Assembly: GCA_963796685.1 (NCBI GenBank)
Contig: CAWCMR010000005.1
Coordinates: forward strand, 64,001 to 128,000
DNA: 64,000 nucleotides
Origin: an uncultured delta proteobacterium
GTDB lineage: Bacteria; Myxococcota_A; Polyangia; Fen-1088
Direction of reading: 5' to 3'
Position numbers and translations under genes: made by a program. Below, one piece after another: positions 28,729-45,875 of the stretch (positions are counted from its first letter, which is position 1; the number at the start of each line of letters is the position of its first letter). The notes beneath the pieces are model-generated. The model saw only the letters and a program-made list of their open reading frames with translations, was not told where the DNA came from and made no database searches.

Positions 28729-28781
28729 CGCCGCTCCAGGCCTGACCCGAGCTGCACCTGCTCCACTGGAGGGGAAGGCCC

Positions 28782-29036
28782 CTAAGGAAGCCTGGAAGCC
28801 AGGAACGTGTGGCATGGCCGTTGGGAGGCAATGACTCGCTTTGATTTCGACCACCACGAAGTGGACCGATTCCAGGAATCCAGGCCAAGTGCCTTGTGGA
28901 CCTATCGGAACACGGATGACACTGCCGGTTGGCTCCTCGTGCTCGAGTCCCTTCTGCTTGTCCTGTTGGGAGTGCTGTCTATCCTCTTTCTTCCTGCTTT
29001 CCTGGCTCCCTTAGACGTTATCGGTCCCGTGCCCTG
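28782..29036 (-). mobile_element. Internally deleted GxxExxY cassette with terminal inverted repeats (MITE-like), copy 1
   Basis: IR CTAAGGAAGCCTGGAAGCCAGGAA (28782-28805) and TTCCTGCTTTCCTGGCTCCCTTAG (28991-29014); minus strand holds fragments GLEHEE..VHKALG.GFLESV..EIK; homologous to 44290-44702. Confidence 0.7.
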
Positions 29037-29205
29037 ACCAACGAATTCAGGCCATCCTCCAGAAGTTGTTCGGCGGCAAGTACGTCCGCGGCTCCGGTCT
29101 ATTGACGATGCGGTGACAAGCCAGGCGTGTTCCCCGACACACCACGGCCACCAGAAGTCTTGTGTAGGGCCGGCAGATGCTTCTAAGCTGCGTCCTTCCC
29201 GCTTC

Positions 29206-29991
29206 ATGTGGTTCAAGCTCCTGCGTAAGGCTCTGCGTTCCCCGACGTCGATGGTCACAGGTGGCCTTCGGTTCTGGCTCGCCCATCGCACGCCTCTCCG
29301 ACGGGCACGTATCCTGTGCCAGTGCGCGGACGGGCTGCGTCTGCACCGTGTATCCGGGTGGGAGGTGCGCTCCGGCCGGGTCTACCGTCGAGTTGCCCGC
29401 GAGCTGCGTGACCTCTCCCCTGTCGAAGGCGATGCCGCGGTGGACTGGGCCGAATTCGCCCATCGAACCATGACACGTGCCCGGCAGCCCCTGCGCGAGC
29501 TCGCCGCGGGGCTTGCGGTTTTGGCGGGCGCTCTCATCGCCGTCGCGGCCATCGTCCTTGCCGTCGGCTGCGCCGCCTCGCCTGACCTGCGCGGTCGCCT
29601 GTTTCCCCGCGATCTGGCCGCGGGCAAGCCGTGGGTCGCCAGCAGCTCCGCCTTCGGCGTACCTGCCAGCGGCTTCGGACCTTCGAGTCGCGAGCAGCTC
29701 TTCTTTCACACCGGTGCCGTCACCAACCCCTACGTCGATATCGATCTCGGCGCCGAGCACACCATTCGCAGCATCGAGGTCGAAAACCGATCCGACTGCT
29801 GCAAGGCGCGCGCGCTTCCCCTCGACGTGAAGATTCTCGACGGAGGCACTTGGCACCTGGTGGCCGAGCGACGGGCGTATTTCTCGACCTGGAGCTACGA
29901 CATCACGCCGGTGCGCGCGCAAACAATCCGCTTCGAACGCCCGGGCACGGACTTCTTTCACCTCAAGCGAATTTCCGTCTACGGCCAATGA
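29206..29991 (+). CDS. Membrane-anchored discoidin/F5-8 type C (galactose-binding-like) domain protein
   Basis: TM helix then DLAAGKPWVASS..FFHT..IDLG..IEVENRSDCC; start uncertain. Confidence 0.65.
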   Translation: MWFKLLRKALRSPTSMVTGGLRFWLAHRTPLRRARILCQCADGLRLHRVSGWEVRSGRVYRRVARELRDLSPVEGDAAVDWAEFAHRTMTRARQPLRELAAGLAVLAGALIAVAAIVLAVGCAASPDLRGRLFPRDLAAGKPWVASSSAFGVPASGFGPSSREQLFFHTGAVTNPYVDIDLGAEHTIRSIEVENRSDCCKARALPLDVKILDGGTWHLVAERRAYFSTWSYDITPVRAQTIRFERPGTDFFHLKRISVYGQ

Positions 29992-31535
29992 CGCTGCCGC
30001 GCCCGCTCAGATTTCTGACCAAGGATCGAGAATCCGGGTGGACGTTCACGCTCGTCGTCTGCGTTCCCTACCTGGCTTTCCTCATCTGGATGCACGTGCA
30101 CCACGAAATGTGGCGCGACGAGATCCACGCCTGGACGCTTTCCCGCCTGGTGCACGGGTTCTGGGAGCTGGTGACCGGTGACCGCATCTACGCCGGACAT
30201 CCTCCGCTTTGGTACTGGTACCTGCGCGTGTGGACGTGGTTCATGGAATCGGCCTGGGGCATCCAGGCCGCCACCGCGGCGGCGGCCGTGGCCGCTGCGG
30301 CGCTGCTGCTTCGCTTCGCGCCGTTCCCGCGCTACCTCAAGGTGATGCTGCTCTTCTCGTACTATTTCGGCTTCGAGTATTCGGTCATGGCACGCAATTA
30401 CGTGCTCGGCTGGCTTCTCTTGTGCCTCTTCTGCGCCCTCTACCACCCTGTCCGCATCCGCTACTTCGCCCTGGCGATCGCGCTGGCCCTGCTGTCCCTC
30501 ACCAGCATCTACGGCCTCATCATGTGTATCTTTCTGCTCGGGTTCTTCGTCCTGGACCAATTCAGGGTGTCGAATGCACGTCCGGGCCTGCGACCGGCCG
30601 AGCACACCTTCGTCACCTCGCCGCGCATCTTCGCGACCATCGCCATCGTATCGGTGGCGATGCTCTTTTGCGTGCTCACCATCGAGCCGCCCGATCCCAA
30701 TCCGTTCTCACCCGCCTTCAACTTCGCCGCGCTGACGCCATCGGCATTGCCCAACATGCTGTACCGGGTGACCGCGGGCATTCTGCCTTGGCGGAAAGCC
30801 ACCATCGCCGATTTCTGGGGTATGTCGTGCACCCTGTGGGATGCCACGTCGACCTGGCCCAAGTACGTGGGGGCGGCTCTCTTGCTTCTGGCGACGCTCG
30901 CGCTTTATCCCTCGTGGCGTCTGATGTTGGCCTACCTGGGCGCGGTCGCGACCATGATGGCCTTCCAAGAGGCGCGGTTCGAGGGTGCACCCCGCCACTG
31001 GGGACACTTCTTCATGTTCCTGGTGTCCGTGTGCTGGCTCGTACGATTGCAATTCCCGAAGCGATCGCACTGGTTCTCGACGCTCTTGCTCACCGGCATC
31101 TTGGCCGTGCAGGTGCAAGGCCTGGTCGCCGCCACCGTCGTGGACACGCGCGAGGTCTTTTCGGGCGGTCGCGATGCCGCCGCCTTCATCCGCAAAGCGG
31201 GCCTGCAGGATCTGCCCTTCGTCGCCGGCCCGGACTACACCGCTGCCACGGTCGCGGGCTATCTGCGCCGGCCGTTCTACGCCGCCGAGACCGCCGAATA
31301 CGACGAGAACGTGGTCTTCCACAATCGCCGCCGTCCGTTCTCTCCGCAAGAGCTGATGAACCGTGCGGTGGGTGTCCTGCGCGAACGGAACAGCCCCGTG
31401 TTGCTGGTTTGCAACCAGTGGCTTCCCGATCCACCGCCGGGCATCCGGCGCACGCTGCTCTTCACCAGTCGCCCCGGCATCGTCGCAGACGAGGACTTCT
31501 CGGTGTATCGGTTGGAAGCCCAGGCGGAGCCGTAG
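29988..31535 (+). CDS. Polytopic membrane protein, probable GT-C glycosyltransferase
   Basis: First loop HEMWRDE..GHPPLWY with DE motif; many TM helices; ATGA coupling to the upstream gene. Confidence 0.7.
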   Translation: MTLPRPLRFLTKDRESGWTFTLVVCVPYLAFLIWMHVHHEMWRDEIHAWTLSRLVHGFWELVTGDRIYAGHPPLWYWYLRVWTWFMESAWGIQAATAAAAVAAAALLLRFAPFPRYLKVMLLFSYYFGFEYSVMARNYVLGWLLLCLFCALYHPVRIRYFALAIALALLSLTSIYGLIMCIFLLGFFVLDQFRVSNARPGLRPAEHTFVTSPRIFATIAIVSVAMLFCVLTIEPPDPNPFSPAFNFAALTPSALPNMLYRVTAGILPWRKATIADFWGMSCTLWDATSTWPKYVGAALLLLATLALYPSWRLMLAYLGAVATMMAFQEARFEGAPRHWGHFFMFLVSVCWLVRLQFPKRSHWFSTLLLTGILAVQVQGLVAATVVDTREVFSGGRDAAAFIRKAGLQDLPFVAGPDYTAATVAGYLRRPFYAAETAEYDENVVFHNRRRPFSPQELMNRAVGVLRERNSPVLLVCNQWLPDPPPGIRRTLLFTSRPGIVADEDFSVYRLEAQAEP

Positions 31536-33543
31536 CTACCAGCGCGCCATCAAGGCCGCGTTGCCGTCGGTCGAGTATCCGCGCTTGGCCAAGGCAAAGG
31601 GCGGTTCGACCGCGACCACGCCGAATTCGCCGTTGCGCAACAGGCGGGTCAAGGTCTCGCGCTCGTTGCCGATGAAGTCGTTGGCCTCGCTGGGAAAGAG
31701 GAGATACTCGGCGTCGGCTTCGTTGCTGATGGTCAGGTTGTAGGCGTCGGGCCGGTTCGAGACGAACGGGGTGGTGAAGCCCGATCCGGAAACCTTCGCC
31801 CGCGGCGGCAGGTGGCGCAGCAGCCGCACGGCCGCGTCGTGGCGGCGCTTGCCTTCGGCGTCGATGCCGAAGGTGTACTTGATGGGACCGCCGTACGAAT
31901 TGGCGTGCTGGAAAATCGCGCCGAATTGGTAGCTCAAGGGCAACGTCATGCAAATCAGGGTCGCGAGCGCCGCGCGCCGCTGGATCGCCCCCAAGCCCGA
32001 CTGCCCGCTGATGGCGGCGCGTCTGCCCATCCATTCCAGGCCCAGCGCGACGCCGGGAAAGAAGAAGGCGATCCAGTGGGCGCTGTACTGGAAGTTGATG
32101 CTGACCAGCGCCCCGTAGTGGGTCGACAGCACGGTGAAGAGGAACCCCGGAATGGCCAGCACCAACCAAATGGGCCGGCGGAAGGGAAGAAAGGCCAACG
32201 GCACGAGGATCTGGAGCATGTAGACGAGCTTGTCCATCTCGGCCAGGGTCGACATGGTGAAGGCAGGGTTGGCGAGCACGGTCACGAGCACGCTGCCGAA
32301 TCCCTTGCCGCCTTGAGGAACCAGAATCCTTGTAGATCATGGTGAAGCTCTCGCCCCCGCCCACGTAGGGCATGGCGACGAACTTGAGGGTCAGGCAATA
32401 GAGCGCGCCGATGACGGTCAGGAGCACGCCCGTCCGTGGCCGCCGCCCGCTGAGCAGGAAATAGAGTCCAAGCACCGCCACCCAAGACGATACGTCCTCG
32501 CGACAGCTCAAGGTCAGAAGCACGAACACGGCGGCCCAGCGGTCGCGGCGCGTTTCCAGGAAGTACCACGCCCACCACAGCAAGAACGGTCCAAGTGGCA
32601 GGAAGTGAAACTCGAACAGGTTCTCGCCGTGCAAGGCCGGGTAGAGAAGATAGGTCAGGGCCAGGATGCAGGCCGGCCAGCGGTCGACGTGCCGCCGGGC
32701 GAGCTTGTACAGCGGAATCGCGGCCGCGCCAAGGATCGTCGATTGGATGAGCATGAGCGTCCCGGCGTTCTGGCGGATGGCATAGAAGGGCAGCAGCGCA
32801 TAGGCGAAGAACTCGGCGTGATTGCCGAAATGGCTGCGCCCTGGCCCTTCCCACGGCGGCGTCTTGAAGAACGAGCCCCCGTGCAGCATGTTCCACAGCA
32901 AGCTGTCGTAGATGCCGGTGTCATAGCCCGAGCGAAGCGAGTAGTAGAAGCAGTAGGTGTAGTACCCGAAATAGCAGATGTAGAAGATCGCGCCGATCAG
33001 TACCAAGATGGCAGGCAGCGAATACGCCGTCCGCGGCATCGCCAGGACCAGCTCCCCACGAAACCTCCGCCATGGCGCCAGGACTTTGGCCTCCCAGGGA
33101 AACGGCCCGGCCCGCAGCGACGCGATGACGGCAGCCCACGTGGCCACACCGAACAACACGACCAGGGTCAGGAACGAAAGGTCACGCCCTTTCCACACCT
33201 CGCAGCGAAAGAGCAGTGCGAAGAACCCGGCCAGGCACAACGGAGCCAGTCGCCTCGACGCGTGGTAGAGCTTTGCGGTCACGTTCGGCGTGGCAAAATG
33301 GGTGAAGAGGTAAAGCCCGCCGGCCAGGACCGCCGCGACGCCGCCCCCGAGGATGGAGACGAGCAGGTTCTGCCGAAGGTGGCTCGACAGGTGGTTCTCT
33401 TGGAAGTAGTGGACCAGCCACACCGGCGTGATGGCCACGCCGACCACGAAACCGATGGACACGCCACCCGCCAGGAGCAGGCCAAGGGCGCGCACCGAGT
33501 ACGACAGCCGGGTCTGGAAATCACTGTCTCGCGCGGGCGCCAC
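31536..33543 (-). pseudogene. DUF2079 family membrane protein (GT-C-like), one frameshift near 32327
   Basis: YDTGIY..HFGNHAE..FEFH..CREDV..FQYSAH motifs; reading YKD(+T)LVPQGGKGFG restores the frame. Confidence 0.75.
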
Positions 33544-33545
33544 GT

Positions 33546-35615
33546 CTAGTTCCTCATCCGGGAAAGGACGCCCGCGTTCAGATCGGTCGGGTAGCCGCGC
33601 TTGGCGAGCACGTACTGCCCGCGCTCGGCCACCACGCCGAAGGCTCCGTCAGGCAACACCTCCATGATCTTGGCGCGCTCGTCGCCACCCACGGGAAGGC
33701 TGAAAAGCAAGTAGTCGGCGTCGGCGATGCCCATGCGCAAGGTGTAGGCGAAGGCTCGGTTCGACACCTGCGGCACGATGTTCTCCGACGAGACGATCTT
33801 CGCCTTGCGTGGCACCATGGCCAGAAGCTCGTAGAGCGTGCGCCTGCGTTCCACGTCCTCGGACGTGGTTCCGAAGTGGTAGGTGCCGAAGCCGCCGCGC
33901 GCGGCATTGTGCTGAAGCAAAGCGCCGAGCTGATACGACGTGGTGAGCACCGCGAGCGAGATGGCCACGAGCCACGCCCGCCGCCAAGCCGCGCCCGCGC
34001 GCCCGCGCCGGGACGCCTCATGGCCGACCCACGCCAGGTTGGCCACGAGAGCGATGAACAGGTACGAGGTCCAGTGCGCGGTGTACTGAAACGAGATCTG
34101 GTAGAGCGGCTTGTAGCCGGTGGAAAGCAGCGTGAACAGGAAGCCCGGCACGCAGCAAAGGATCCCGATGGCCCGGCGCATGGGAAAGAACGCCAGGGGC
34201 AGGAAGATCTTCGAGCAGGTAGACGAGCTTGTCCCGCTCGAGGACCACGCCCAGAGTGAAGACCGGGTTGCCGAACACGGTCTTCATCACCCCACTGAAG
34301 CCCTTGCTGCCCTCGGGAACCAGGCCCGCGTACTGGTGGATGAACGCCTCCGAGCCCCCGCGCTGAAGCGGCATGATCACCAATTTCATGCTCACGAAAT
34401 AGATCGCTCCCGCACAAGCGAGCCACAGCCCGGCCCGGGAGCTGCGGTTGGTGAGCATCAAGAAGAGGCCGCCGATCACGAGGCCGATCGAGACATCCTC
34501 GCGCACCGACAAGGTCAGGACCGCGAAGATGAACGTCGCCACCGCCCGCCGGGAAAGCGCGAAGTAGAGGGTGAACCACAGGAAGAACGGCGCCAGCGGC
34601 GGGTAGTGAAAGTCGTACAGGTTCGACCCGTGCAGCGGCGGATACAGCACGTACCACACCGCCACCAGGCACGACAGCCACGGTCCGAGATACTTGCGCG
34701 CGACCAGATAGAGCGGGATGGCCGCGCCGCCGATGAGGGCGGCCTGCAGAGATCAGAATGGTTTCCGCGCTCTGGTGGATGGCGTAGATGGGCGCGATGA
34801 TGTAGCTGAGGTAGGCGGCGTGCTCGCCGACCAGGTTGCCGGTCGGGCCACCGTAGGGCGTGGTACGGAAGAGCGCGCCGCTGTGAAGCGCGTTCCAGAT
34901 CACGTTCTCCTCGAGCCCCAGGTCGAGGCTGCTGGACAGGACGTTGCGGTGGTGGACCACGGTGTAATACCCGAAGTACGCGGTGTAGACGAGGGCAGCC
35001 AACACCACGAGGACGAAGGGCAGCCAGGTCGCGCTCCACCGCCCCATCTGCGCGCCATCGGCGAGCGCGCGATCGAAAAGGCGCGGCCGGCCGAAGACCG
35101 GCTGGGTGGCAAGCGCGACTTGGACGAGCTTCTGCGCCGAGAACACCAAGACCAGGACCAGCAACAGGAAGACCACCTCGCGCCCACCCTGCCAGAAGCG
35201 CCAGCGAAACATGAGGGGCAAGAGCGCCGCCAGCGCCGCAGGCGACAGCCGACGACCCAAGCGCTCGATGTGGTCGCCGAACAGAAGCTGCCTGCGGGCC
35301 AGCAGCCCGAACAGGAGCAGCGGAAAGATGGCCATTCCGCAGACGCCGAAGGTGACCGCGCGCAGCCCGCGCTCGTGGGTGGGCCCGTTGCTCAGGACGA
35401 AATCGTAGAGCGAGGCGGATGCCCAGAAGCTCCCACAGGCACACGCCGAGAGAGAAACCGATGAGCGCCAGCACCCCGAGACCGGAAAAGGCCGCGCTGA
35501 GGCGCGGGCGCCAGGCGGCAAAGTCGGCTGAAAGCCCGACCCTGCCAGCATCCTCGACAGCCTCGGCGGGCCGGCCTGACGCCGGGCCCTCGCCGACTTC
35601 CTCGCCCGTGCTCAC
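33546..35615 (-). pseudogene. Second DUF2079 family membrane protein, three frameshifts (~35420, ~34750, ~34210)
   Basis: LDLG..GEHA..YDFH..VREDV..FQYTAH motifs spread over four ORFs; paralog of the neighbouring gene. Confidence 0.72.
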
Positions 35616-36631
35616 GTCGGCTTGCCCTCGCTCCTCGCAGCCGCGGGACCGGCTGGTGCCTGTTGCGGCGCCTCGCCCCCCACGCCGCCCGCCGCGAAAT
35701 TCACTTCCTTGGCCACGGTATAGAGCGGACGACGCTGCACTTCTTCATAGATGCGGCCGACGTAGGCGCCGAGGATGCCAATCATGAAAAGCTGGGCCGA
35801 GGAGCCGAGCGCCACCAGGATCATGATGGTCGTCCAGCCCGGCACCGCACTCACGCCATGAATCTTCACCCAAAACGCCCAAGCGCCGAGGCCCATGGCC
35901 AAAAGGGCCGCGAACGCGCCTAACCAGGTCGCCATGCGCAGCGGAAGGGTCGAAAACGACGTGATGCCGTCGAAGGCGAACTTCAACATCTTGCTCAGCG
36001 GGTACTTCGTGACGCCGGCGAAGCGCTCATGGCGCGTGTAGGTCACCGAGGACTGCCGGAAGCCGATCCACCCGACCAACCCTCGAATGAAGCGGTGGCC
36101 CTCGCGCAGCGAGCGCAGGGTCAGAATCACGACCCGACTCATGAGCCGGAAATCGCCGGCATCGAGCACCACGTCGAATCCCAGCATGGCACGAAACACG
36201 CGGTAGAAGACCAGGGCCGTCAGGCGCTTGAACCAGGTCTCGCCCAGTCGCCGCCCGCGAACCGCATAGACGACGTCGTAGCCTTCGCGCCAGCGGGCCA
36301 GCATCGCACGCACCACCTCGGGTGGATCCTGAAGGTCGGCGTCCATGACCACGACCGCTTCGCCTTCCGCCCGATCCATCCCGGCCGTGATCGCGATCTG
36401 ATGGCCGAAATTGCGCGAAAAGGAGATGACCTTGAAACGGGGCTCGCTTTTCGCCATGTCGGCCAGCAACTTGGCCGAGGAATCGCGCGAGCCGTCGTCG
36501 ACGAAGACGACCTCCCAGGTTTCGCCCAGCTCGGCAAAGAACGCGCGCAGACGTCGGTCGAGCTCGGGAATCGTTTCTTCCTCGTTGAAGACGGGGATCA
36601 CGACCGAAAGGGTGGGACGTGCTTCTGTCAT
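35612..36631 (-). CDS. GT2 polyprenol-phosphate glycosyltransferase (GtrB/YkoT-like)
   Basis: VIPVFNEE, FVDDGSRD, SRNFGHQ, MDADLQDPP, GDFRL and two C-terminal TM helices. Confidence 0.92.
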   Translation of the reverse strand: MTEARPTLSVVIPVFNEEETIPELDRRLRAFFAELGETWEVVFVDDGSRDSSAKLLADMAKSEPRFKVISFSRNFGHQIAITAGMDRAEGEAVVVMDADLQDPPEVVRAMLARWREGYDVVYAVRGRRLGETWFKRLTALVFYRVFRAMLGFDVVLDAGDFRLMSRVVILTLRSLREGHRFIRGLVGWIGFRQSSVTYTRHERFAGVTKYPLSKMLKFAFDGITSFSTLPLRMATWLGAFAALLAMGLGAWAFWVKIHGVSAVPGWTTIMILVALGSSAQLFMIGILGAYVGRIYEEVQRRPLYTVAKEVNFAAGGVGGEAPQQAPAGPAAARSEGKPT

Positions 36632-36847
36632 GCAGGAGGCCGTTTATACCGCGAACATCGCGCCAATTGGACCAAAGACCACCCGAGATCGCCAGCCATC
36701 CGGGGCGGCATCACTCCCGCGATAGCCGCAGAAGGCCGTAGCCGTGGCCGACCACCCGTATGCGACCATCGGTGTGACACATAGCACTGTGGAGCCCGAA
36801 TGGCGTCGGCGATGGCGCCTCCTTGGCCGGGCTGCTAGTTTCGCGCC

Positions 36848-37807
36848 ATGAAGCTTCGCATTCTCTACCACGGCAATTGCTTCGACGGCTCGGCGTCTGC
36901 GGGGTTGTTCGCGCGATTCTTTCGCGAACGCCTGGCGAAGGGCGATGCCGAGGTCGCGTATACGCCCATGCAGCACAAGGGCGACGCGCAGCCGATTGCC
37001 GAAAAGCTGCTCGACGGCGATGTGAACGCCTGCGTGGATTTCCGCTACAGCCAGAACCCACGGCTTGGCTGGTGGTTCGACCACCACGTTTCGGCGTTTC
37101 AGCTACCCGGCGACGAGGCGCATTTTCGCGCCGACCGCAGCGGGCAAAAGTTCTACGACCCGCACGCCAAGAGCTGCACCCGATTCCTCGCCACGAAGCT
37201 GGCCCAGCATTTCGACTGGGACATTGCTCCTTTCGCCGAGCTTCTGCACTGGGCGGAGATCATCGACGGCGCGCTCTTTCCGTCGGCGGCCATGGCGGTC
37301 GAGCTGCACGAGCCGGCCTTGCGGCTCATGACCTGGGTCGAGAACAACCGCGACAAGGCGCTGGCCGAGCGGTTCATCGGGGAGCTGGTATCGCGCCCGC
37401 TGGCCGACCTCGCCGCCGACACCTACGTGGCCGAGGCGTTGCAGCCGCTCCTGGTGCGCCACGAGCAGAACCTGGCGGCCATGCGCCGCCTTTCGCACCT
37501 GGACCGGGGCGTGGTGACGAGCGACCTCATCCCCGAAGGTATCGCCACCATCAACAAGTTCATCGTCTATTATCTGCACCCCGAGGCGCGCTATTCCGTC
37601 ACCCTCCTCGAAACCGCCGAGCGCTACAAGATCTCGGTCGGCTCGAACCCGTGGCCGAAAGCTCCGCGCACCCACGACATCGCCAAGCTGTGCGAGAAAT
37701 ACGGCGGCGGCGGCCATCCCGCGGTAGGCGCCATCTCGCTGCCCAAGACCGATCTGGAGGCCGTGCGCAAGGTCGCAGGTGAAATCGTGGACGTTCTGCA
37801 GAGCTAA
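36848..37807 (+). CDS. DHH/DHHA1 family phosphoesterase
   Basis: YHGNCFDG, VDF, FDHH and GGGGH motifs. Confidence 0.85.
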   Translation: MKLRILYHGNCFDGSASAGLFARFFRERLAKGDAEVAYTPMQHKGDAQPIAEKLLDGDVNACVDFRYSQNPRLGWWFDHHVSAFQLPGDEAHFRADRSGQKFYDPHAKSCTRFLATKLAQHFDWDIAPFAELLHWAEIIDGALFPSAAMAVELHEPALRLMTWVENNRDKALAERFIGELVSRPLADLAADTYVAEALQPLLVRHEQNLAAMRRLSHLDRGVVTSDLIPEGIATINKFIVYYLHPEARYSVTLLETAERYKISVGSNPWPKAPRTHDIAKLCEKYGGGGHPAVGAISLPKTDLEAVRKVAGEIVDVLQS

Positions 37808-39825
37808 TAAATGATGCCGTGGCAGGTGGTGTCGCACGTCCCGCTGCCGTTCAGGGGACCATCGTCGCACTCTTCGCCGAAGAGGCTGTCGACCTTGCCG
37901 TCGCCGCAGTAGGGAACGGTCCGGCAACCGGGGCCGCAGCCCTGGGTCTGACCGTAGGTCGTCTGGTTGACGCCATCGTCGCACTCTTCGCCGTAGGCGG
38001 TGTCGACGTTGCCGTCACCGCAGAAGGGGCCGACGGTGCACTGGGTGGTGCAGCCGCCGTAGGCATCGTCGGCGTTGGCGGCGCCGTTGTCGCAGGCCTC
38101 GCTGCCGTTGATGATGCCGTCGCCGCAGCGATCCTTGCAGACGGTGTGGGTGCGGTTGAATTGGCCCACGGTCAGCTTGTAGCTCGACCGGGTCTGCTTG
38201 CGCTCGGCCTGGAACAAGGCGATTTCGTAGACCTTGCCCTTGGTCAGGTTGAACTTGGTCGCGGTGGCCGCATCGAGCGTGATGGCGCCTTCGGCGGCCT
38301 CGTGGATGCCGCCCAGATCCACGGCCAGCTTGCCGTTCAAGAACACCCACACGTCGTCGTCGCCGATGAAGTCCAGAGTTTCGCCGCCCTTGAATTCGAA
38401 CCAGTAGCGGAGCTCGCTGGTGAACGAAAAGTTGTGCTTGGAGTTGTCGAGGTCGCAGGTACCGAGGAAGGGGTGCTCGGGCCCCGGCCTACCCTGTGCG
38501 TCCGGGGCGTCCCAGCCCTTGCCATCGAGCGGGAAGAAGGCCGGCCGCAGCCATAGCTTGAGATCGCTCGAGTAGTACGAGGAGTGGTCGTACATGAAGG
38601 TGCCGTTGGGCTGGCCTAGCAAGGTGAGGGTGTCGACGACTGTGCTGCAGTACTTCGAGTCCCGATACCAGGTGTCGAAGTTGGTCTGATTGGAGGTCTT
38701 GGACAGGGTGGTGTCGACCGCCGAGTTGTATTGCGGTTTGCGGTCGGGGCCCAGGGTGTCGAGCACCACGCCCAAGGTCAGGGTTCCATTGGTGGGAACC
38801 TCGAAATCCGGATGGGGTGGCGGATTGGTGATGGTCGCCGTCTGCGGGATCATGTCGCGGTAGATGATGGGAACCACCATGTCCGTGTCGGATCCTTCGA
38901 CGACCTGCTGGCAGTCCCAGCCCGGTTCCAGCTTGCACGTCGACGAGCACCCGTCACCCGAGCTCAAGTTGCCGTCGTCGCATTCCTCGTCGGGCAGCTT
39001 GAGGCCGTCGCCGCACGGCGAGGTGCAGCCGCTGGTTCCCGTGCAGATGGGCTCGGACTTGCAGTCCGAGGCGCAGCCGTCGCCGGGCATGGTGTTGCCG
39101 TCGTCGCACGACTCGCTGCCTTCCTTGGTGCCGTCGCCACACACCGTCCTGTGGCAAGCGGTGTTCGGCTTCGAGCAAGCGTAACCCGGCTCGAGCTTGC
39201 ACCCCGAGCTGCAGCCGTCGCCCGAGTTGGCGTTGCCATCATCGCATTCCTCCCAGCCCGTGAGCAGGCCGTCCCCGCACCTAGGTTGACAGCGAAGGCC
39301 GGGCGCGGCGCAAACCCAGCCGGGCTCCACCGTGCTGCAATCGGCGGAGCAACCGTCGCCGTCCGTGGTGTTGTGATTGTCGCAAGCCTCCTTGCCCGAA
39401 ATGTGCCCGTCGCCGCACACCACGGTCGACACGCAGGGCGAGCCGGCGGTGGGGCAGACGAAGTCGGTTTCAACCCGGCAGGCCAGGGAGCAGCCGTCCC
39501 CCGGTATGGTGTTCCCGTCGTCGCACTCCTCGTCGCTGTCCAAGGTGCCGTCGCCGCAGTGGGGAGGGATCCCGCACCCGCTCGGATCCTGGCAAACCGG
39601 GCGCGCGTCGTTCCTGGTCGGCACGTCGAGCGAAAAGGTCACGGCGCTGTCGAGCTTGAGCATGATGGCGGCATCCCCCGGCGCGAGCGTGGCCGCGTCG
39701 GGAACGGCATTGCCGGTGATGGTTCCGCCGTTGCAGCCCACGAGCCCGCAGCCTGCCGTCAGCATCCCCATGGCAGCGCCCAAGCGGGCTCGCCTGGCTC
39801 GCACGACATCGCACTGGCCTAGCAT
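37804..39825 (-). CDS. Fibro-slime domain lipoprotein with myxococcal Cys-rich (DUF4215) repeats
   Basis: Lipobox LVGC; many CGDG..EECDDGN..GDGCS..C repeats; HNFSFTSE..FIGDDDVWVF..DLGGIH..AER. Confidence 0.92.
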   Translation of the reverse strand: MLGQCDVVRARRARLGAAMGMLTAGCGLVGCNGGTITGNAVPDAATLAPGDAAIMLKLDSAVTFSLDVPTRNDARPVCQDPSGCGIPPHCGDGTLDSDEECDDGNTIPGDGCSLACRVETDFVCPTAGSPCVSTVVCGDGHISGKEACDNHNTTDGDGCSADCSTVEPGWVCAAPGLRCQPRCGDGLLTGWEECDDGNANSGDGCSSGCKLEPGYACSKPNTACHRTVCGDGTKEGSESCDDGNTMPGDGCASDCKSEPICTGTSGCTSPCGDGLKLPDEECDDGNLSSGDGCSSTCKLEPGWDCQQVVEGSDTDMVVPIIYRDMIPQTATITNPPPHPDFEVPTNGTLTLGVVLDTLGPDRKPQYNSAVDTTLSKTSNQTNFDTWYRDSKYCSTVVDTLTLLGQPNGTFMYDHSSYYSSDLKLWLRPAFFPLDGKGWDAPDAQGRPGPEHPFLGTCDLDNSKHNFSFTSELRYWFEFKGGETLDFIGDDDVWVFLNGKLAVDLGGIHEAAEGAITLDAATATKFNLTKGKVYEIALFQAERKQTRSSYKLTVGQFNRTHTVCKDRCGDGIINGSEACDNGAANADDAYGGCTTQCTVGPFCGDGNVDTAYGEECDDGVNQTTYGQTQGCGPGCRTVPYCGDGKVDSLFGEECDDGPLNGSGTCDTTCHGIIY

Positions 39826-39849
39826 GGTCGTGGTATTCTAGCCGAATCG

Positions 39850-40728
39850 ATGCCCAATCGCATTGCTTCGCTGCAGTTCCTTGCGGGCGCGTTGGTTTGC
39901 CTGGCCGCCGTCTTGGGGGCCTGCAAGAAGGCGGATGTCGCACCCGGTGACGCGGGCGCGGCCGACCGCCATGTCACGGCCAGCAGCGGAGGCAGCGGAG
40001 GCCAAAACACGGTCGGTGAGGGCGGCAGCGGTGGGCAGGCCACGGGAGGCGGCGGCGATCAAGGCGGCAGCGGCGGCGGCGGCGCAGACGAGGGTGGGAG
40101 CGGCGGCGGCGGAGCGGGCGGAACCTCGAGCCAGGGAGGCAAGAGCGGTCGCGATGCCTCGATGGGCGGCGCGGCCGGCAAGGATGCCAGCCGCGAGGCT
40201 TCGCCGGCCATCGACGGCGGCCCGGTCAGCTGCGACGACATCACCAGTCCAGGCCGCCTGGCGGTCTACTACTACTGCGACAGCGCGGCCTCCGGCTCGT
40301 CCATCCAAATCCACCTCGATCTCGTCAACTACACCGCCTTCAGCTCGAAGCTGTCGCAGGTGACGGTGCGCTACTGGTTCACCGACGAAGTGGCCGCCTC
40401 GCCGAACGTGATGGAGCAGTACTACGTTCCCATCCCCACCACCATGAAGTTCATCACCCTCGATCCGCCCCGGGCCGGCGCGGACACCGTGCTCGAGATG
40501 TCCTATTCGCCCTCTCCCGACGCGGGCACGTCCTGGGTGGAGACGCGCGGGTTCAACTTCGCCTTCCACAAGACCAGCTACGACGGCACCTACGACCAGA
40601 CCAACGACTACTCCTACGATCCGACCTTGAAATCGGCCCTCGGCCTCAACCCCAAGATCACCGCCTACGTCAACGGCGTTCTGGCCTGGGGCTGCGAGCC
40701 GGACGTCCTTCCGAATGGTGGCGGGTAA
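39850..40728 (+). CDS. Lipoprotein with Gly-rich linker and CBM3 cellulose-binding module
   Basis: Lipobox LGAC; VTVRYWFT..YDQTNDYSY..KITAYVNGVLAWGCEP. Confidence 0.85.
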   Translation: MPNRIASLQFLAGALVCLAAVLGACKKADVAPGDAGAADRHVTASSGGSGGQNTVGEGGSGGQATGGGGDQGGSGGGGADEGGSGGGGAGGTSSQGGKSGRDASMGGAAGKDASREASPAIDGGPVSCDDITSPGRLAVYYYCDSAASGSSIQIHLDLVNYTAFSSKLSQVTVRYWFTDEVAASPNVMEQYYVPIPTTMKFITLDPPRAGADTVLEMSYSPSPDAGTSWVETRGFNFAFHKTSYDGTYDQTNDYSYDPTLKSALGLNPKITAYVNGVLAWGCEPDVLPNGGG

Positions 40729-40752
40729 CCCGCGGCACCCTGGCAGAAGGTA

Positions 40753-41601
40753 TCAGAGGCTGGGCATCGACAGGGTTCGACGAAGAGCACGCCGCTCGCG
40801 TTTGCGCGCGACCTTGGCGATCCGTCGCTCGAGCTTGGCGGCGGACACGGCCCGACCTGCCAGACCCTCCTGTTCCTCGTGGTGCTCGGAAAAATCGCCG
40901 GGTGAGGTCCCGAGCTCGAAGATCGTGACCTCGCGCTTGCCGCGCTCGCCGACGCGCAAGGGCATCACCGCTGCCCCGATGCCGGCACCCACGTAAACCG
41001 CCCCGGCGTTGTCGTTCGCCCGCCGGCTTCCGTATAGACCGTGCACGTACCTGTGCCCGCCGATCTTGCCCAGGGCTATCTCGTGCAATCCGGCCAGCGT
41101 GATCTGTCCGCCGTGCGTGTGTCCGGACAGCACCAGCGGAATGCCGTGCGGCCACAACATGTCCGCTTCCTCCGCGATGTGCGACAGGGCCAGGGATGGA
41201 AGATCGCGGCGCAGACCAGCCACCGCCTTGTCGCGCCGGGCATGACCCGTATACGCGTCGTCGAGCCCGACGATTTGGATGCGCTGGCTGCGCACCGTGA
41301 TCGTGGTGTTCTGGTTGCGCAAGACCTCGACCCCGCCCCGCTGCAAGGCCAAGCAAACCTCGTCGGCGCCGGCCCAATAGTCGTGGTTGCCCAGCACGGC
41401 GATCACCGGGGCATGAAAGCCCACCATCAGATGGGTCAACTGGTCCAGGTAGAGCTGGCTGTGGCAAACGAAATCCCCGGTGACGAGCACCAGATCGGGG
41501 CTCTCCGCGTTGACCAGCGCCTGCGCCTCGCGCTGAATCGCGAACGGTGTGACCCGACCGACGTGCAGATCGGTCACGTGCGCGATGCGCATCGGATCCA
41601 T
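40753..41601 (-). CDS. Calcineurin-like metallophosphoesterase (YkuE-like)
   Basis: DLH, TGDF, LGNHD and SGHTHGGQ motifs. Confidence 0.9.
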   Translation of the reverse strand: MDPMRIAHVTDLHVGRVTPFAIQREAQALVNAESPDLVLVTGDFVCHSQLYLDQLTHLMVGFHAPVIAVLGNHDYWAGADEVCLALQRGGVEVLRNQNTTITVRSQRIQIVGLDDAYTGHARRDKAVAGLRRDLPSLALSHIAEEADMLWPHGIPLVLSGHTHGGQITLAGLHEIALGKIGGHRYVHGLYGSRRANDNAGAVYVGAGIGAAVMPLRVGERGKREVTIFELGTSPGDFSEHHEEQEGLAGRAVSAAKLERRIAKVARKRERRALRRTLSMPSL

Positions 41602-41816
41602 CCGCCGCACGTAGGCGGCAGGACCGGCGAATCGGCGCAAGGCGACTCGCCCCTGCTTCACCCTCGAAGCCGCCACCGACGATCTCGCCCAGCTTTGACT
41701 CCACGAGAACGGCGGGAACATCATCTACAGAAAGTGTAACTGCCGTCGCCCGGATGTCCAGGCAAGTTGCCGCCATGGCAGACTTGCGACGCGCGGCCCG
41801 CCGCGCCGCACATCCG

Positions 41817-42473
41817 CTACAGCCCGGAATCTACAGACGAATCCAAGGGCGCAGGCTGGGTGCCCCCGTCGAGGACCGGAATCGTGGGGATCGCCTGACG
41901 GCAATCCGCGGGCACGTGACAACTGGCGATGGCGCCGCAAGTCTCGGCAACTTCGGCCAGGCGGCTGGCGAAGGGCTCCGTGGCGACGTACGGACACGAG
42001 GTTGGCCAGGGGATATCGGCCTGGCAGAGCGTGATCACGTCCTCGGGGCTGAGAGACTTGGCCGTATCCTGGCAGATCCCATTCGAGCACGTGTACTGAT
42101 AGGTGGTCGTTCCGAGGGTTGCGTCCCAAGGTGCGCAATCCGCGTCGACGGTGCACGCGACAGGATGGCCGGGCTCGGCCGCGTTCACCTGGATGGGACC
42201 GCTGGACAGGATGAGAACATGGATGGTCAAAATGCGGCTCCAAAGCATGACGAAGGTGTCACCGCTCTGGACGCTGTCGCAGGCCAGCGGTGTGATCCTT
42301 GGATCCTCGGGTGTCAACGTGCAAATGCCCCCCGAGCAATTGGCGTCGAAGACGTAGCCGAGCGTGTCGGTCACCGTCACCGGCGGCGTGCTGCCGCCGG
42401 AGGAGCTGCTGCTACAAGCAAACGCCGATACCAGCAGGATGGCAAGTGCGGATGGTTTCGTGATTGGCGACAT
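41817..42473 (-). CDS. Cys-rich hypothetical lipoprotein
   Basis: Lipobox AFAC followed by a Ser/Gly linker; many Cys. Confidence 0.75.
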   Translation of the reverse strand: MSPITKPSALAILLVSAFACSSSSSGGSTPPVTVTDTLGYVFDANCSGGICTLTPEDPRITPLACDSVQSGDTFVMLWSRILTIHVLILSSGPIQVNAAEPGHPVACTVDADCAPWDATLGTTTYQYTCSNGICQDTAKSLSPEDVITLCQADIPWPTSCPYVATEPFASRLAEVAETCGAIASCHVPADCRQAIPTIPVLDGGTQPAPLDSSVDSGL

Positions 42474-42486
42474 GGTCCCTCGTTCG

Positions 42487-43254
42487 CTAGATGAAGTGGG
42501 CGATGGCCGCCGAGAACTCGGACGGCCTTTCCAGATTGCTCAGGTGCCCGGCGCCGGCGATCTCCACCAAGCGCGCGCCGGGAATGGCCCTGGCGAGGTC
42601 CGCCATTTCCGCGGGCGGAGAGATCTTGTCCTCGGTTCCCACCATGACCAAGGTGGGACAGCCGATGGCCGCCAGCTCGGCCCGACGATCGGGCCGGTCG
42701 CGCAAGGCTCGGATGCCGGCCGAGACGCCCTCCGGGCTCTGCTTGCCGAGGCCACGCACGTGTTCGCGTACCGCCTCGCTGGCCGCGGGCGAAAGCAGCG
42801 CCGCGAGCTGACGTTCGACCAGCGCGGGTACGCCTTCTCGCGCCACCAAAGCCAGCGCGTCCGCGCGCCCAGCCCTTGCCACGTCCGAATCGGCGGCGGC
42901 GCGCGTATCGGCGAGAATCAGGCGTTCGAGGCGCGCCGGATGGCGAGCGGCGAAGGCCAGCGAAACGTAGCCGCCCATGGATAAGCCGCCCACGCTGGCG
43001 CGCCGGATACCCAGGCTGTCGAGCAATGCCGCAACATCGTCGGCCATGTCGGCAATGGAAGGATCGCCGCCGCCCAGGTCGGAGGCCCCGAAACCGCGCA
43101 TGTCGGGCACGAGCACGCGGCAGCGATCGGCCAGGGACCGCGCCGTGGACGCCCACATCCTTCCGTCCAGGGGAAAGGCGTGAACGAGCACGAGCGGCTC
43201 TCCATCGCCGAACGATTCATAGGCCAGCGCCCGATCGCCGATGCGCGCTTTCAT
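42487..43254 (-). CDS. Alpha/beta fold hydrolase
   Basis: HAFP, PDMRGFG, GLSMGG nucleophile elbow, EDK and AGHLSNLE. Confidence 0.9.
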   Translation of the reverse strand: MKARIGDRALAYESFGDGEPLVLVHAFPLDGRMWASTARSLADRCRVLVPDMRGFGASDLGGGDPSIADMADDVAALLDSLGIRRASVGGLSMGGYVSLAFAARHPARLERLILADTRAAADSDVARAGRADALALVAREGVPALVERQLAALLSPAASEAVREHVRGLGKQSPEGVSAGIRALRDRPDRRAELAAIGCPTLVMVGTEDKISPPAEMADLARAIPGARLVEIAGAGHLSNLERPSEFSAAIAHFI

Positions 43255-43328
43255 GGGCCCGACGTTAGCACGGAGTTTGAAAGCGCGGAAACTTGCGTCT
43301 TCTCGCCATCGGCCGGACGATCCGAGGC

Positions 43329-44237
43329 ATGGGCCTGTCCGTGGATCTGGCGATTCAGCAATTCCTCGACCATCTTCGGGTCGAGCGCGAGCTGTCCGTC
43401 GCGACCCTGGTGGCCTATGGCCACGACCTGGCGGCGCTGGCACGCTTTCTCGTCGGTCGCGGCGTCGAGGACGCGTGCGCCGTGCGCCCGGTCGATGTCC
43501 TTGAATACCTGGCCGCGCTCACCGAGCAGGGGCTCTCCGCGCGCTCGCAAGCACGGACCCTGGTGGCGCAACGTCAGTTCTTCAAGTTCCTGCGCAGCGA
43601 GCGCATTTGCGACGCCAACCCCACCGAGGAAATCGACCTGCCCCACTTCGGACGCAAGCTGCCGGTCTTCCTCAGCTTGGACGAGGTAGACCGCCTGTTG
43701 GCCGCGCCAGGGCGAGGCACGCCGCGCAGAATGCGTGATTCGGCCATGCTGGAGACCCTCTACGCGGCCGGCCTGCGGGTGTCGGAGCTGGTCAAGCTGC
43801 GCCTTGGCGACCTCAACCTCGAAGCAGGGTACCTGGTGGCATTCGGCAAGGGCAAGAAGCAGCGAATCGTCCCCCTAGGCGAGGCCGCGGTCGACATCCT
43901 GCGTTCGTACGTGCAATCGGCACGACCGGAGTTTCTCAAGGACACGAGTCGTCCCACCGAGGACGCGGTCTTTCTCACGCGCTTCGGAGGGCGTATGACC
44001 CGGCAGGCCTTTTGGAAAATCCTGGCCGCCCACGCGCGAGCCGCCGGCATCGACAGGCCGATCTCGCCACACAAGCTGCGTCATTCCTTCGCCACCCACC
44101 TCGTCGAACGGGGAGCCGACTTGCGCTCGGTGCAGGCCATGCTCGGCCATGCCGACATCGGCACAACGGAGATCTACACCCACCTATCGCGCGCCCACCT
44201 GCGCAACGTCTACGACAAGTTCCACCCCAGGGCGTAG
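43329..44237 (+). CDS. xerD: Site-specific tyrosine recombinase XerD
   Basis: GLRVSEL, GKGKKQR, HKLRHSFATH, LGHADIGTTEIY and C-terminal HPRA. Confidence 0.9.
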   Translation: MGLSVDLAIQQFLDHLRVERELSVATLVAYGHDLAALARFLVGRGVEDACAVRPVDVLEYLAALTEQGLSARSQARTLVAQRQFFKFLRSERICDANPTEEIDLPHFGRKLPVFLSLDEVDRLLAAPGRGTPRRMRDSAMLETLYAAGLRVSELVKLRLGDLNLEAGYLVAFGKGKKQRIVPLGEAAVDILRSYVQSARPEFLKDTSRPTEDAVFLTRFGGRMTRQAFWKILAAHARAAGIDRPISPHKLRHSFATHLVERGADLRSVQAMLGHADIGTTEIYTHLSRAHLRNVYDKFHPRA

Positions 44238-44289
44238 GCCCAGCGCCCGCCCAGCGAGGCCAGTGCGCGGGAGGGCATTGGAACACTCC

Positions 44290-44702
44290 CAGGGCAAGGC
44301 CCGGGACGGATAACGTCTCCGGGACGGATAACGTCTGACGGATAGCGTCTAAGGAAGCCAGGAAAGCAGGAAGACAGAGAGTAAGCAGTACTCCCAACAG
44401 GACAAGCAGATGGGACTCGAGCATGAGGAGCTAACCCGAAGTTCCCCGCGAAGAGAAGGCAACTGCGGAATTACTGATTCCTGGAGTCGGTCTGCGAGAA
44501 CGCCCTCGCCCTCGAGCTTGCGGCTCCGATCGAGACTCTCGAGGATGTCCACTTCGCGGTCGTTCGCTCCTGGGCTAGATCCGGGCCACCGGCCCTGAGC
44601 ACGGGCTGATCTTGACCTTCGCCGAGCCAACGCTCGAAATCAAGCGCGTCACTGCCTCCCAACGGCCATACCACCCATTCCTGGCTTCCTGGCTTCCTTA
44701 GA
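44290..44702 (+). mobile_element. Decayed GxxExxY cassette with 25-bp terminal inverted repeats (MITE-like), copy 2
   Basis: TCTAAGGAAGCCAGGAAAGCAGGAA (44348-44372) and TTCCTGGCTTCCTGGCTTCCTTAGA (44678-44702); fragments MGLEHEELT, FLESVCENALALEL, EDVHFAVVRS, HGLILTFAEPTLEIKRV. Confidence 0.75.
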
Positions 44703-44800
44703 GGAACACCCCAGGGAGAGGAACACCCCAGGGTTCCCATGATCCCTGTGGCGGAGCCGCGCATAGCGCGGGGGTGGCAGGGCGGGAGGCAGGTGCCGAG

Positions 44801-45125
44801 CCTTCGAGGGTTCCCATCTATCGCGTTGGCGGAGCCGGGCTTTGCCCACCGACTGCGTCGGTGCTTCGGGACCTACACCTCCACGCCCTCCCCCTCGCGT
44901 CCTTCGGACGCGCCCCTCGCGCCTCCGCCATAGCGCGGGAGGGTTTGGGAACCCTTCGAGGGTTCCCATCCATCGCGTTGGCGGAGCCGGGCTTTGCCCA
45001 CCGACTGCGTCGGTGCTTCGGGACCTACACCTCCACGCCCTCCCCCTCGCGTCCTTCGGACGCGCCCCTCGCGCCTCCGCCATAGCGCGGGAGGGTTTGG
45101 GAACCCTTCGAGGGTTCCCATCCAT
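44801..45125. repeat. Tandem 152-bp REP-like palindromic repeat (2 copies plus a partial)
   Basis: Units start at 44801, 44953 and 45105; contain the GGGAACCCTTCGAGGGTTCCC hairpin. Confidence 0.9.
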
Positions 45126-45197
45126 GTCGATTGACCATCTCGGACCCCGTCGGCTATACCCCAGGGTTCGTGTTGCGGCCATGCCGCGGAGACAGCT

Positions 45198-45875
45198 TTG
45201 AACATCGGAGCCGACCAAATTCAGCGCGCGATCCTCTATCTGATCGCGTTCATCCTCAGTATCGCCGTCCACGAGTACGGCCATGCCTGGATGGCGAACC
45301 GCCTGGGCGATCCCACGCCGCGCATGCAAGGACGCCTGACCCTGGCGCCACAACACCACATCGACCCCATCGGGACCATCTTGATGCCGATCATCATGGC
45401 CATGTCGTCGGTGCCACTGCTGGCATGGGGCCGGCCGGTTCAATACAACCCGGCCGCCTTGACGCGTCGATTCTCGATGAGCACGGGGCGGATGCTGGTC
45501 GCCGTCGCCGGGCCGGCCATGAACCTGGTCATGGCCTTCGCGGTGTCGATCGTGATCGTCGTGGCGGCCAAGCTGCACGTGCCCGCCCGCTTGCTCAACA
45601 CGCTGTTTCACTACCTGGTCTATCTCAACATCTCGCTCATGATCTTCAATCTGATTCCCATCCCCCCGCTCGACGGTGGCGCCGTCCTGGCCTGGGTGCT
45701 CCCCCGTTCCATGCACAACGTGGTGGACTTCCTGTCGCGCTACGGAGGGTTCATCTTGCTGCTCATGGTGATCAGCCCCTCGATGGGCCTGCCGCTCATG
45801 GGCGTCATCGGCTATCCCATCGACCTCATCACCTCGTACTGGGTTGCCGGCCTCAGCATGGTGATGGGCTCATGA
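45198..45875 (+). CDS. Site-2 protease (M50) family protein
   Basis: HEYGH, GDPTP..GRLTL, AGPAMN and FNLIPIPPLDGG. Confidence 0.92.
   Translation: MNIGADQIQRAILYLIAFILSIAVHEYGHAWMANRLGDPTPRMQGRLTLAPQHHIDPIGTILMPIIMAMSSVPLLAWGRPVQYNPAALTRRFSMSTGRMLVAVAGPAMNLVMAFAVSIVIVVAAKLHVPARLLNTLFHYLVYLNISLMIFNLIPIPPLDGGAVLAWVLPRSMHNVVDFLSRYGGFILLLMVISPSMGLPLMGVIGYPIDLITSYWVAGLSMVMGS

Follow-up and report, generated by a model that had tools for sequence, protein, structure and literature searches.

A probable relic family of short GxxExxY-bearing transposable elements, its live sister family and the enzyme that may move them

Two stretches of the 64,000-nt DNA analysed here (the window, which belongs to the genome G000) are very probably dead, internally deleted copies of a transposable element of about 0.6 kb that carried a gene of the GxxExxY family. 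The element inserts by its outer repeats with 8-9-bp direct duplications of the target, and its deletion derivatives are copied as well, which makes it similar in behaviour to MITEs (miniature inverted-repeat transposable elements). Its full form would comprise, in order, an outer terminal inverted repeat (TIR; GGGTGCCWAACTGATTTGGGG), the motif GCAACG-N15-CGATAAC, a AGGAAGCC arm, the GxxExxY gene, the complementary arm and the outer repeat once more (...TGTYAAGCACCC). Insertion via the outer repeats involves a staggered 9-bp cut in the target, giving rise to the duplications; the inner arms pair as a stem around the gene and are not sites of insertion. As to what moves the element, we regard it as roughly an even bet that an unlinked transposase acts in trans, the element being a mobile insertion cassette (MIC) with GxxExxY as its passenger. 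That the GxxExxY nuclease is itself required for movement appears doubtful, and it is rather improbable that the mover is something else again. The outer repeats, the 9-bp duplication, a live 579-bp family without a visible partner and a fully decayed family as the end of the life cycle are what is new here.

A dispersed family and its outer ends

Copies 1 (28740-29080, minus strand) and 2 (44270-44760, plus strand) had been described in the preliminary description as homologous stretches with different internal deletions, and their MAFFT alignment bears this out, with long identical runs at both ends and differing internal gaps. When both copies were compared by blastn with the whole of G000 (7.31 Mb in 26 contigs, 88.6% complete), 94 high-scoring segment pairs merged into 30 loci, 19 of them with both arms and the remainder one-ended. 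The copy pair is part of a dispersed family far beyond chance, and about 30 odd intergenic repeats in G000 are explained by these relics.

The inverted repeats of about 24-25 bp that were initially taken for the termini are real (23/25 positions match in copy 2, as 17 + 6 pairs), but they are not terminal, because conservation, target duplications and a polymorphic insert all reach further outwards. Conserved sequence runs past the arms, on the upstream side for about 63 nt and on the downstream side for about 28 nt, as far as the ends GGGTGCC...GCACCC; the upstream segment common to many copies is GGGTGCCAAACTGATTTGGGGGGTCAGCCCACGCAACGCCCAAGGCCCGGGACCGATAACGTCT and the downstream one AGAGGCCTCCTCTTCTGTCAAGCACCC, and the flanks beyond them are unrelated. 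The outer ends, GGGTGCCWAACTGA...AAGCACCC, form an imperfect inverted repeat that in G000 is found only with the relic family. At 12 of 14 positions GGGTGCCTAACTGA matches the reverse complement of the right end GGGTGCTTAACAGA; this outer repeat is absent from both window copies.

Target duplications adjoin the outer ends in four relic-family copies. Three of these are relics with complete outer ends from one metagenome scan with a 34-nt pattern: L111 has TCCAGTCTC on both sides (9/9), L112 has GTACGCAT (8/8) and L113 has GTCGCGGCA versus GTCGCAGCA (8/9). The fourth, at C8:562260 of G000, has CTTCCTCG on both sides (8/8).

Comparison among genomes speaks for mobility in the same way. Among 41 genomes searched, the relic family is abundant only in G000 and its congener G002, with 33 matches each; three further genomes have one or two weak matches and the other 36 have none. 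In G018, which belongs to another genus, a truncated left end is found with the outer segment attached. All five congeners examined lack the block with copy 2 between the corresponding genes: the distance from the stop codon of the upstream recombinase gene to the TTGACC...TATACC promoter of the next gene is about 860 nt in G000, and in the five congeners it is 0-60 nt, or 173 nt of another repeat. The site of copy 1 is occupied in G002 by 101 unrelated nt. When 13 G002 loci were compared with G000, five proved to be orthologous copies; one site filled in G002 (L024) is empty in G000 (C25:1505828-1505832), the inserted piece including the outer-left segment; one holds 27 unrelated nt in G000, and another has only a solo right end there. 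Thus sites are polymorphic among congeners as had been expected of a mobile element, with the difference that the ends so defined are the outer repeats with their 8-9-bp duplications and not the arms. Further copies and empty sites, whose absence would have told against mobility, both exist, and the dispersed mobile family postulated at first survives with its anatomy corrected.

Copying and decay can be told apart from the positions of the deletions. The junction of ATGGGACTCGAGC with yTGATCTTGAGC occurs at three non-orthologous sites (C8:463041 in G000, L014 and L024 in G002), and L111 and L112 have another junction in common while their flanks are different. Such common junctions at different sites indicate that deletion derivatives were copied, which agrees with the early suggestion that internally deleted derivatives were spawned. 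At one orthologous site (C13:337812 in G000, L032 in G002) the two genomes have different deletions, which points to decay in place. Of the 27 two-armed copies that were mapped (19 from G000, 8 from G002), nearly every one has an interior deletion of its own, and pieces that match a hidden Markov model (HMM) built by us from 20 intact GxxExxY proteins cover model positions 1-43, 42-67 and 91-117 in different copies. The genome-wide count thus yielded 30 loci, and the intact parent sought with it is found neither in G000 nor in G002: neither genome has an intact gene of the relic family. The longest copy, L005 of G002 (372 nt between the arms), was considered as a parent and rejected as broken, and outer-terminus matches in G467 and G218 were rejected as unrelated sequence. 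In a search of 401 genomes of the class, the N-terminal fragment found its best intact relative at 70% identity over 40 aa; nothing stated here depends on one member of that set, G466, which is flagged as unpublished. It would seem that the relic family in G000 has lost every intact gene, is left with no partner and now only decays by in-place internal deletions. In three G002 relics (L012, L014 and L123) another repeat, ending in ...GAGGTGGTTTCAGGTC, is inserted at one and the same point, the TCTAAGG/AGGAAGCC junction at the base of the left arm.

The only open reading frame (ORF) of the element is that of GxxExxY, and the statement that no transposase gene lies within it holds. The GxxExxY pieces recognised by eye in the window are confirmed only by way of their relatives: in themselves, the three ORF pieces tested match no Pfam family at E<=1, PF13366 included. 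The link is made by DNA homology to paralogous relics that match PF13366, by the home-made HMM and by a common start. One paralogous relic (C25:1266996-1267124, or L015:1600-1728) matches PF13366 at 1.7e-12 (48.2 bits against a cut-off of 22), and two others in G000 match it at 7.3e-11 and 2.9e-7; the home-made HMM matches the C-terminal piece of copy 2 at model positions 92-117; and the start ATGGGACTCGAGCATGAGGAG is common to the window pieces and the PF13366-matching paralogs. The D/ExK region in the window copies is deleted or out of frame. Judged from these sequence matches, the window copies appear to derive from a GxxExxY gene while no longer being members of PF13366 or TIGR04256.

A live sister family and the question of the mover

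A protein search of the 401 genomes gave 18 equal-scoring hits in the congener G004, which led to a second family. This element is 579 bp long, and its copies are 96.7-99.7% identical to a reference copy; G004 holds 73 of its termini and about 36 nearly identical copies. Its ends are GGGTGCCTCCCTGAAACGGGGGC and GCCCCCATTTCAGGGAAGCACCC, with a TIR of 23 nt of which 21 match, and further in come the motif GCAAC...CGAAAAC and arms built of GGAACGGAG-type words; its only ORF is GxxExxY (PF13366 at 1.3e-40, 138.9 bits; TIGR04256 at 2.4e-41, 140.8 bits). Perfect 9-bp duplications are present in 30 of the 32 complete copies read, in all 30 abutting the outer repeats, and the duplicated 9-mers have no obvious consensus by eye. 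When the empty sites of 15 insertions were rebuilt and compared with G000, one match spanned the junction (70% identity), the rest being one-sided or unmatched. Its parts follow one another as they do in the relic family, and both families have the end motifs GGGTGCC..CTGA..GGGGG..CAGCC and AAGCACCC. On these grounds we treat the two as sister families, and we therefore read the 8-9-bp duplications of the relic family as the product of the same mechanism.

The G004 family also gives some weight to the tentative idea that the 0.58-kb element, whose sole protein is a PD-(D/E)xK nuclease of about 130 residues, is an autonomous transposon. In this form of the explanation the GxxExxY nuclease would be the transposase or an indispensable part of it, and the window relics would be its non-autonomous, dead descendants; the nuclease would make the 9-bp staggered cut in the target and free the element at its GGGTGC ends, and host repair would join them. 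We consider this possible, on balance not probable. About 36 near-identical copies in a good assembly, whose 9-bp duplications are perfect, which hold no second ORF and whose ends recur in no longer element, are what would be expected of it. In addition, both families, though diverged and with different ends, have retained this gene at one position and in one orientation (their proteins are 61% identical over the N-terminal 38 aa compared), the catalytic residues D65, E75 and K77 are invariant in 9/9 aligned proteins, and the family with no intact gene left is the one that is wholly decayed. Substitutions among the G004 copies also lean towards synonymous changes (15 are synonymous and 25 nonsynonymous, where the synonymous share expected is 0.253), but at p=0.06 the test for selection is not significant. 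The nuclease domain is broken in 10 of 32 G004 copies, and copies with the same defect are found at different sites, so movement does not need a copy's own gene. Moreover, GxxExxY also occurs as a fixed, vertically inherited single-copy gene under purifying selection and without outer repeats, between comM and recA in four congeners, and G050 has a GxxExxY cassette immediately downstream of the end of an apparent transposase ORF, inside a larger repeated unit. Finally, to duplicate 9 bp at targets of unrelated sequence is typical behaviour for a DDE enzyme, and we know of no precedent for strand transfer by a PD-(D/E)xK nuclease alone.

The preferred explanation, mobilisation of a cassette in trans, calls for a partner with the same ends, and neither G000 nor G004 nor any of 76 genomes of the family has yielded one. 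The G004 assembly (99% complete, 30 contigs) resolves insertion sequences (ISs) with 10 copies, and not even the first 14 nt of the ends recur in any other of its elements, apart from one further match with one mismatch. As for transposases in G004, PF01609 alone was listed (30 matches) and other families were not searched; the other DDE loci fetched are without a GGGTGC end, the ends having been read for 3 of the 10 copies of one multi-copy IS and for two single loci. A second multi-copy IS has the ends CAGGGTCATCGCATC. Nor is the 579-bp unit itself of the IS4/IS5 type, with a DDE ORF between its repeats, since its one ORF is GxxExxY.

Several candidates for a parent were set aside. Two pairs of G004 ends that are 2.0 kb apart enclose a 438-aa IS4-family transposase (PF01609 at 1.3e-9; NF033592 at 97.6 bits, against a cut-off of 115), and could be taken for the autonomous parent. 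This is ruled out by the finding that a 1428-bp IS with its own ends is nested at two different points in two 579-bp copies. This IS has perfect 17-bp ends CATAGGCATTAACCCAA and 11-bp duplications, stands alone at six other G004 sites, amounts to eight full copies in G004 and has copies in G002 that are about 90% identical (L162-L173). Similar ends that stand 2.5 kb apart in G011 have ordinary host genes between them, and end matches in G018 and G009 are solo or cut by contig ends.

Several observations weigh against our explanation as a whole. Six complete copies in G000 and G002 have flanks that match at 3-6 of 8 positions, the same as mismatched left/right controls (3-6). We read this dissimilarity as age; it nevertheless limits what the relic family itself can show, so that the evidence for duplication comes from the four relic-family copies and the G004 sister family. 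Neither window copy has an outer terminal repeat or a clean duplication, and consequently their membership of the family rests on homology of the inner part. The junction at L024 in G002 is unclean, with extra bases next to the left end, and G000 is itself incomplete, as noted above. The missing partner weakens that half of the explanation in which the element is mobilised in trans, just as the half that involves the nuclease is weakened in that PD-(D/E)xK enzymes are not known to transfer strands alone.

Because no partner transposase is in sight, the question can be put to the test in the live 579-bp family of G004. We are dealing either with a new type of transposase or with a very successful cassette that outlived or hid its helper. 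If the element were autonomous, a function would be found for the large GxxExxY family (PF13366), the nuclease would be a new kind of transposase, and the element would be about the smallest self-mobile bacterial DNA element.

The GxxExxY gene, its inner arms and the window copies

The GxxExxY protein is predicted to be a generic PD-(D/E)xK nuclease. Its model (pLDDT 93) has its best fold matches in Cas4 SSO0001 (Z 8.0), restriction enzymes and Hjc (Z 6.5), and fold searches gave only generic PD-(D/E)xK matches, with a Foldseek E no better than 5e-3 and a Z no higher than 8.0; a sequence search of the PDB gave no match at E<=10. In addition to the catalytic residues, G20, G22, L24, E25 and Y28 are invariant in the nine aligned intact relatives. 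A full-text literature search on GxxExxY, PF13366 and TIGR04256 returned no title or abstract with repeats or mobility. The function of PF13366 is listed as 'Unknown' in the available text of PMC3424549, and in the excerpt of PMC8934634 the GxxExxY domain is mentioned only beside a reverse transcriptase.

Flanking arms are a common attribute of the gene. PF13366 (PDDEXK_3) is present in 19 of 151 genomes of a phylum sample, and inverted word arrays flank 15 of 21 near-full GxxExxY genes with scores of 16-33, compared with maxima of 9-14 among 30 shuffles each; the remaining six score 13 or less. The arms consist of tandem purine-rich words of 7-9 nt (CACAGAGGA, CGCAGAGCC, CACGGAGGG, CACGAAA and others). 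The AGGAAGCC repeats are thus an inner hairpin of the kind found around many GxxExxY genes, and not termini. The sole intact GxxExxY gene of G000 (L001, C25:838602-839067), with CACAGAGGA arms, is the one between comM and recA; G002, G004 and G010 carry it there too, G001 has a 15-nt scar and the site in G012 is empty. Its ratio of nonsynonymous to synonymous substitution rates is 0.07-0.19 among the four species, with synonymous divergence near saturation, and its arms stay complementary in each species despite differing words. Being single-copy at a fixed site and under purifying selection, it indicates that the GxxExxY family can also be a fixed, selected gene.

It was on the word arrays that the preliminary description based its anatomy. 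If that anatomy were right, the AGGAAGCC arms would be the working ends, and the nuclease would act on them as in the REP/RAYT system (repetitive extragenic palindromes and their associated tyrosine transposases), giving rise to hairpins with little or nothing of the gene in them. Arms do indeed occur by themselves: G000 has 69 arms of the CACAGAGGA type that surrounds its intact gene, including 17 uniform gene-less hairpins with loops of 40-60 nt, and an exact 21-mer of the AGGAAGCC arm occurs, mostly in short hairpins, at 15 loci of metagenome-assembled genomes labelled Planctomycetota, Verrucomicrobiota, Spirochaetia and Chloroflexota. We nevertheless consider this anatomy very improbable. 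In the relic family it is at the outer ends that the conserved unit stops, that the polymorphic insert stops and that the duplications lie; every perfect duplication in G004 abuts the outer repeats, and no G000 copy has its arms directly against unrelated flanks on both sides. The eye-catching arms are an inner stem, and at least one cassette lineage uses other, outer repeats for its movement, which leaves a 9-bp duplication. What the stem does can only be surmised; it may act as a cruciform or, in RNA, as a stem like that of an intervening sequence (IVS).

Some further observations concern the surroundings of these genes. The 17 gene-less CACAGAGGA hairpins of G000 share outer flanks too (TTGAAACCCGAGCAATTTCCGGATTCTAA ... 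TGAAAAAAGGCTTGTGCGCGCTCTGCAC). The motif GCAACG-N14-16-CGATAA, present in the outer-left segment of the relics, also lies upstream of six of the seven GxxExxY genes of G120 (L058, L071, L082 and L084-L086), with no match in 135,692 nt of background from those loci; it may be an alternative-sigma promoter. G050 has six paralogous GxxExxY cassettes (L060, L070 and L078-L081) with CGCAGAGCC arms. The larger repeated unit around them has at one side the end of a transposase-like, possibly IS630-like ORF (...FRWTYTGRALQA and stop codon) and at the other ...CCGCCCCGCTGTAC followed by TA (...CTGTAC/TA).

In the window copies (Table 1) the left arm reads TAAGG(A/G)AGCCAGGAAAGCAGGAAG and the right arm (A/G)TTCCTGGCTTCC(T/A)GGCTTCCTTA. 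These arms, built of AGGAAGCC-type words, close the minimum-energy structure in both copies on folding as single-strand RNA; the two parts of the stem in copy 2 are separated by a 2-nt internal loop, and the folds have z values of -2.5 in copy 2 (equalled by 1/100 shuffles) and -4.4 in copy 1 (0/200).

Table 1. Coordinates of the two relic copies and of their parts within the window
Feature	Position	Strand	Remarks
Relic copy 1, whole	28766..29037	-	From alignment and comparison with the family consensus; both outer terminal repeats gone; keeps ~24 nt of the outer-left and ~15 nt of the outer-right segment
Copy 1, outer-left remnant CAGGGCACGGGACCGATAACGTCT	29014..29037	-	GCAACG-N15-CGATAAC motif, 3' half
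Copy 1, inner left arm TAAGGGAGCCAGGAAAGCAGGAAG	28990..29013	-	Closes predicted fold
Copy 1, interior	28807..28989	-	5' leader and GxxExxY ORF debris, most of the middle and C-terminal part deleted; no Pfam match (one piece tested) and no match to the home-made HMM at E<=0.05
Copy 1, inner right arm GTTCCTGGCTTCCAGGCTTCCTTA	28783..28806	-	Closes predicted fold
Relic copy 2, whole	44295-44702	+	Homologous to copy 1
Copy 2, outer-left remnant CAAGGCCCGGGACGGATAACGTCT	44295..44349	+	From sequence against family consensus
Copy 2, inner left arm TAAGGAAGCCAGGAAAGCAGGAAG	44350..44373	+	Closes predicted fold
Copy 2, interior	44374..44676	+	Leader, start codon at 44410, two ORF pieces
Copy 2, N-terminal ORF piece	44410-44598	+	Interrupted by foreign insert
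Copy 2, C-terminal ORF piece GLILTFAEPTLEIKRV	from 44603	+	Frame differs from that of the N-terminal piece
Copy 2, inner right arm	44677..44700	+	Closes predicted fold
Copy 2, right flank, AGAGGAACACCCCAGGG twice in tandem	44701..44733	+	Outer right end not recognisable

That both copies sit just after a stop codon is loosely true: copy 2 begins about 60 nt past the stop of a gene for a XerC/D-type recombinase (43293-44237, PF00589 at 1.5e-48) and ahead of scpA (45131-46927, PF02616 at 9.5e-26), and copy 1 sits between two convergent ORFs. Around copy 2, GGGACGGATAACGTCT, the last 16 nt of the outer-left remnant, is repeated in tandem about 2.7 times at 44303-44350, beside the left arm. Direct repeats of GGAACACYCCCAGGG lie once on the left (44280-44294) and twice on the right (44703-44716 and 44720-44733), an arrangement at odds with a 9-bp duplication. 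A second repeat family (GGGTTCCCATCYATCGCGTTGGCGGAGCC...) is represented by two tandem units of about 200 nt at 44720-45125. Pieces of it account for most of 342 matches across all five congeners searched, and the 173 nt at the site of copy 2 in G002 belong to it as well.

Comparison with known systems

The element has in common with REP/RAYT (REP/REPIN) systems, REPINs being REP doublets that form hairpins, a single small gene between inverted repeats, and many gene-less CACAGAGGA hairpins are found in the same genome. The gene, however, is of the PF13366 family and is predicted to have a PD-(D/E)xK fold; it is not an HUH Y1 transposase gene between inverted REPs, and the relic family moves with outer repeats and 9-bp duplications.

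The IVS of 23S rRNA is described in the available text of PMC4990558 as a small ORF within complementary ends that form a long stem, considered selfish and with an unknown manner of moving. The likeness to a small ORF enclosed by a stem raises the alternative that our copies are not products of transposition at all, and are either remnants of an IVS-type cassette acting at the RNA level or ordinary gene duplicates spread by recombination. A gene in G000 for a four-helix-bundle protein of PF05635 (23S_rRNA_IVP) has the same kind of bracket. It lies at C5:241085-241399 (L088) between inverted GTGGCC/GGCCAC arrays, and such arrays also adjoin some relic copies. We find this alternative exceedingly hard to credit, because copies at unrelated intergenic sites with direct target duplications contradict a non-transposition reading. 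Furthermore, the element differs from an IVS, which sits within a 23S rRNA helix and is excised by RNase III, in its ORF family (that of the IVS being S23p, a four-helix bundle) and in having outer repeats and target duplications beyond the stem, and it lies outside rRNA: the copies are between protein genes, and four loci (the relic L015 and the intact cassettes L001, L051 and L060) have no Rfam match.

TnsA of Tn7, a PD-(D/E)xK enzyme that works with a DDE partner, and PDDEXK_2 have the same catalytic fold as GxxExxY, and no specific similarity to them was found. In the available text of PMC3424549, PDDEXK_2 is listed as a 'putative transposase'.

MITEs and MICs are, in the available part of PMC3129680, IS derivatives bounded by TIRs and without a transposase. 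Mobilisation as a cassette, the explanation that we prefer, would place the relic and G004 families among them: both have TIRs at their true ends, target duplications of fixed length and many copies without a transposase gene, and deletion derivatives are copied. They differ in that no cognate IS with the same ends is found in G000, G004 or the 76 genomes of the family. They differ also in their cargo, for the passengers of MICs vary, whereas the two diverged families described here carry the same gene in the same position.

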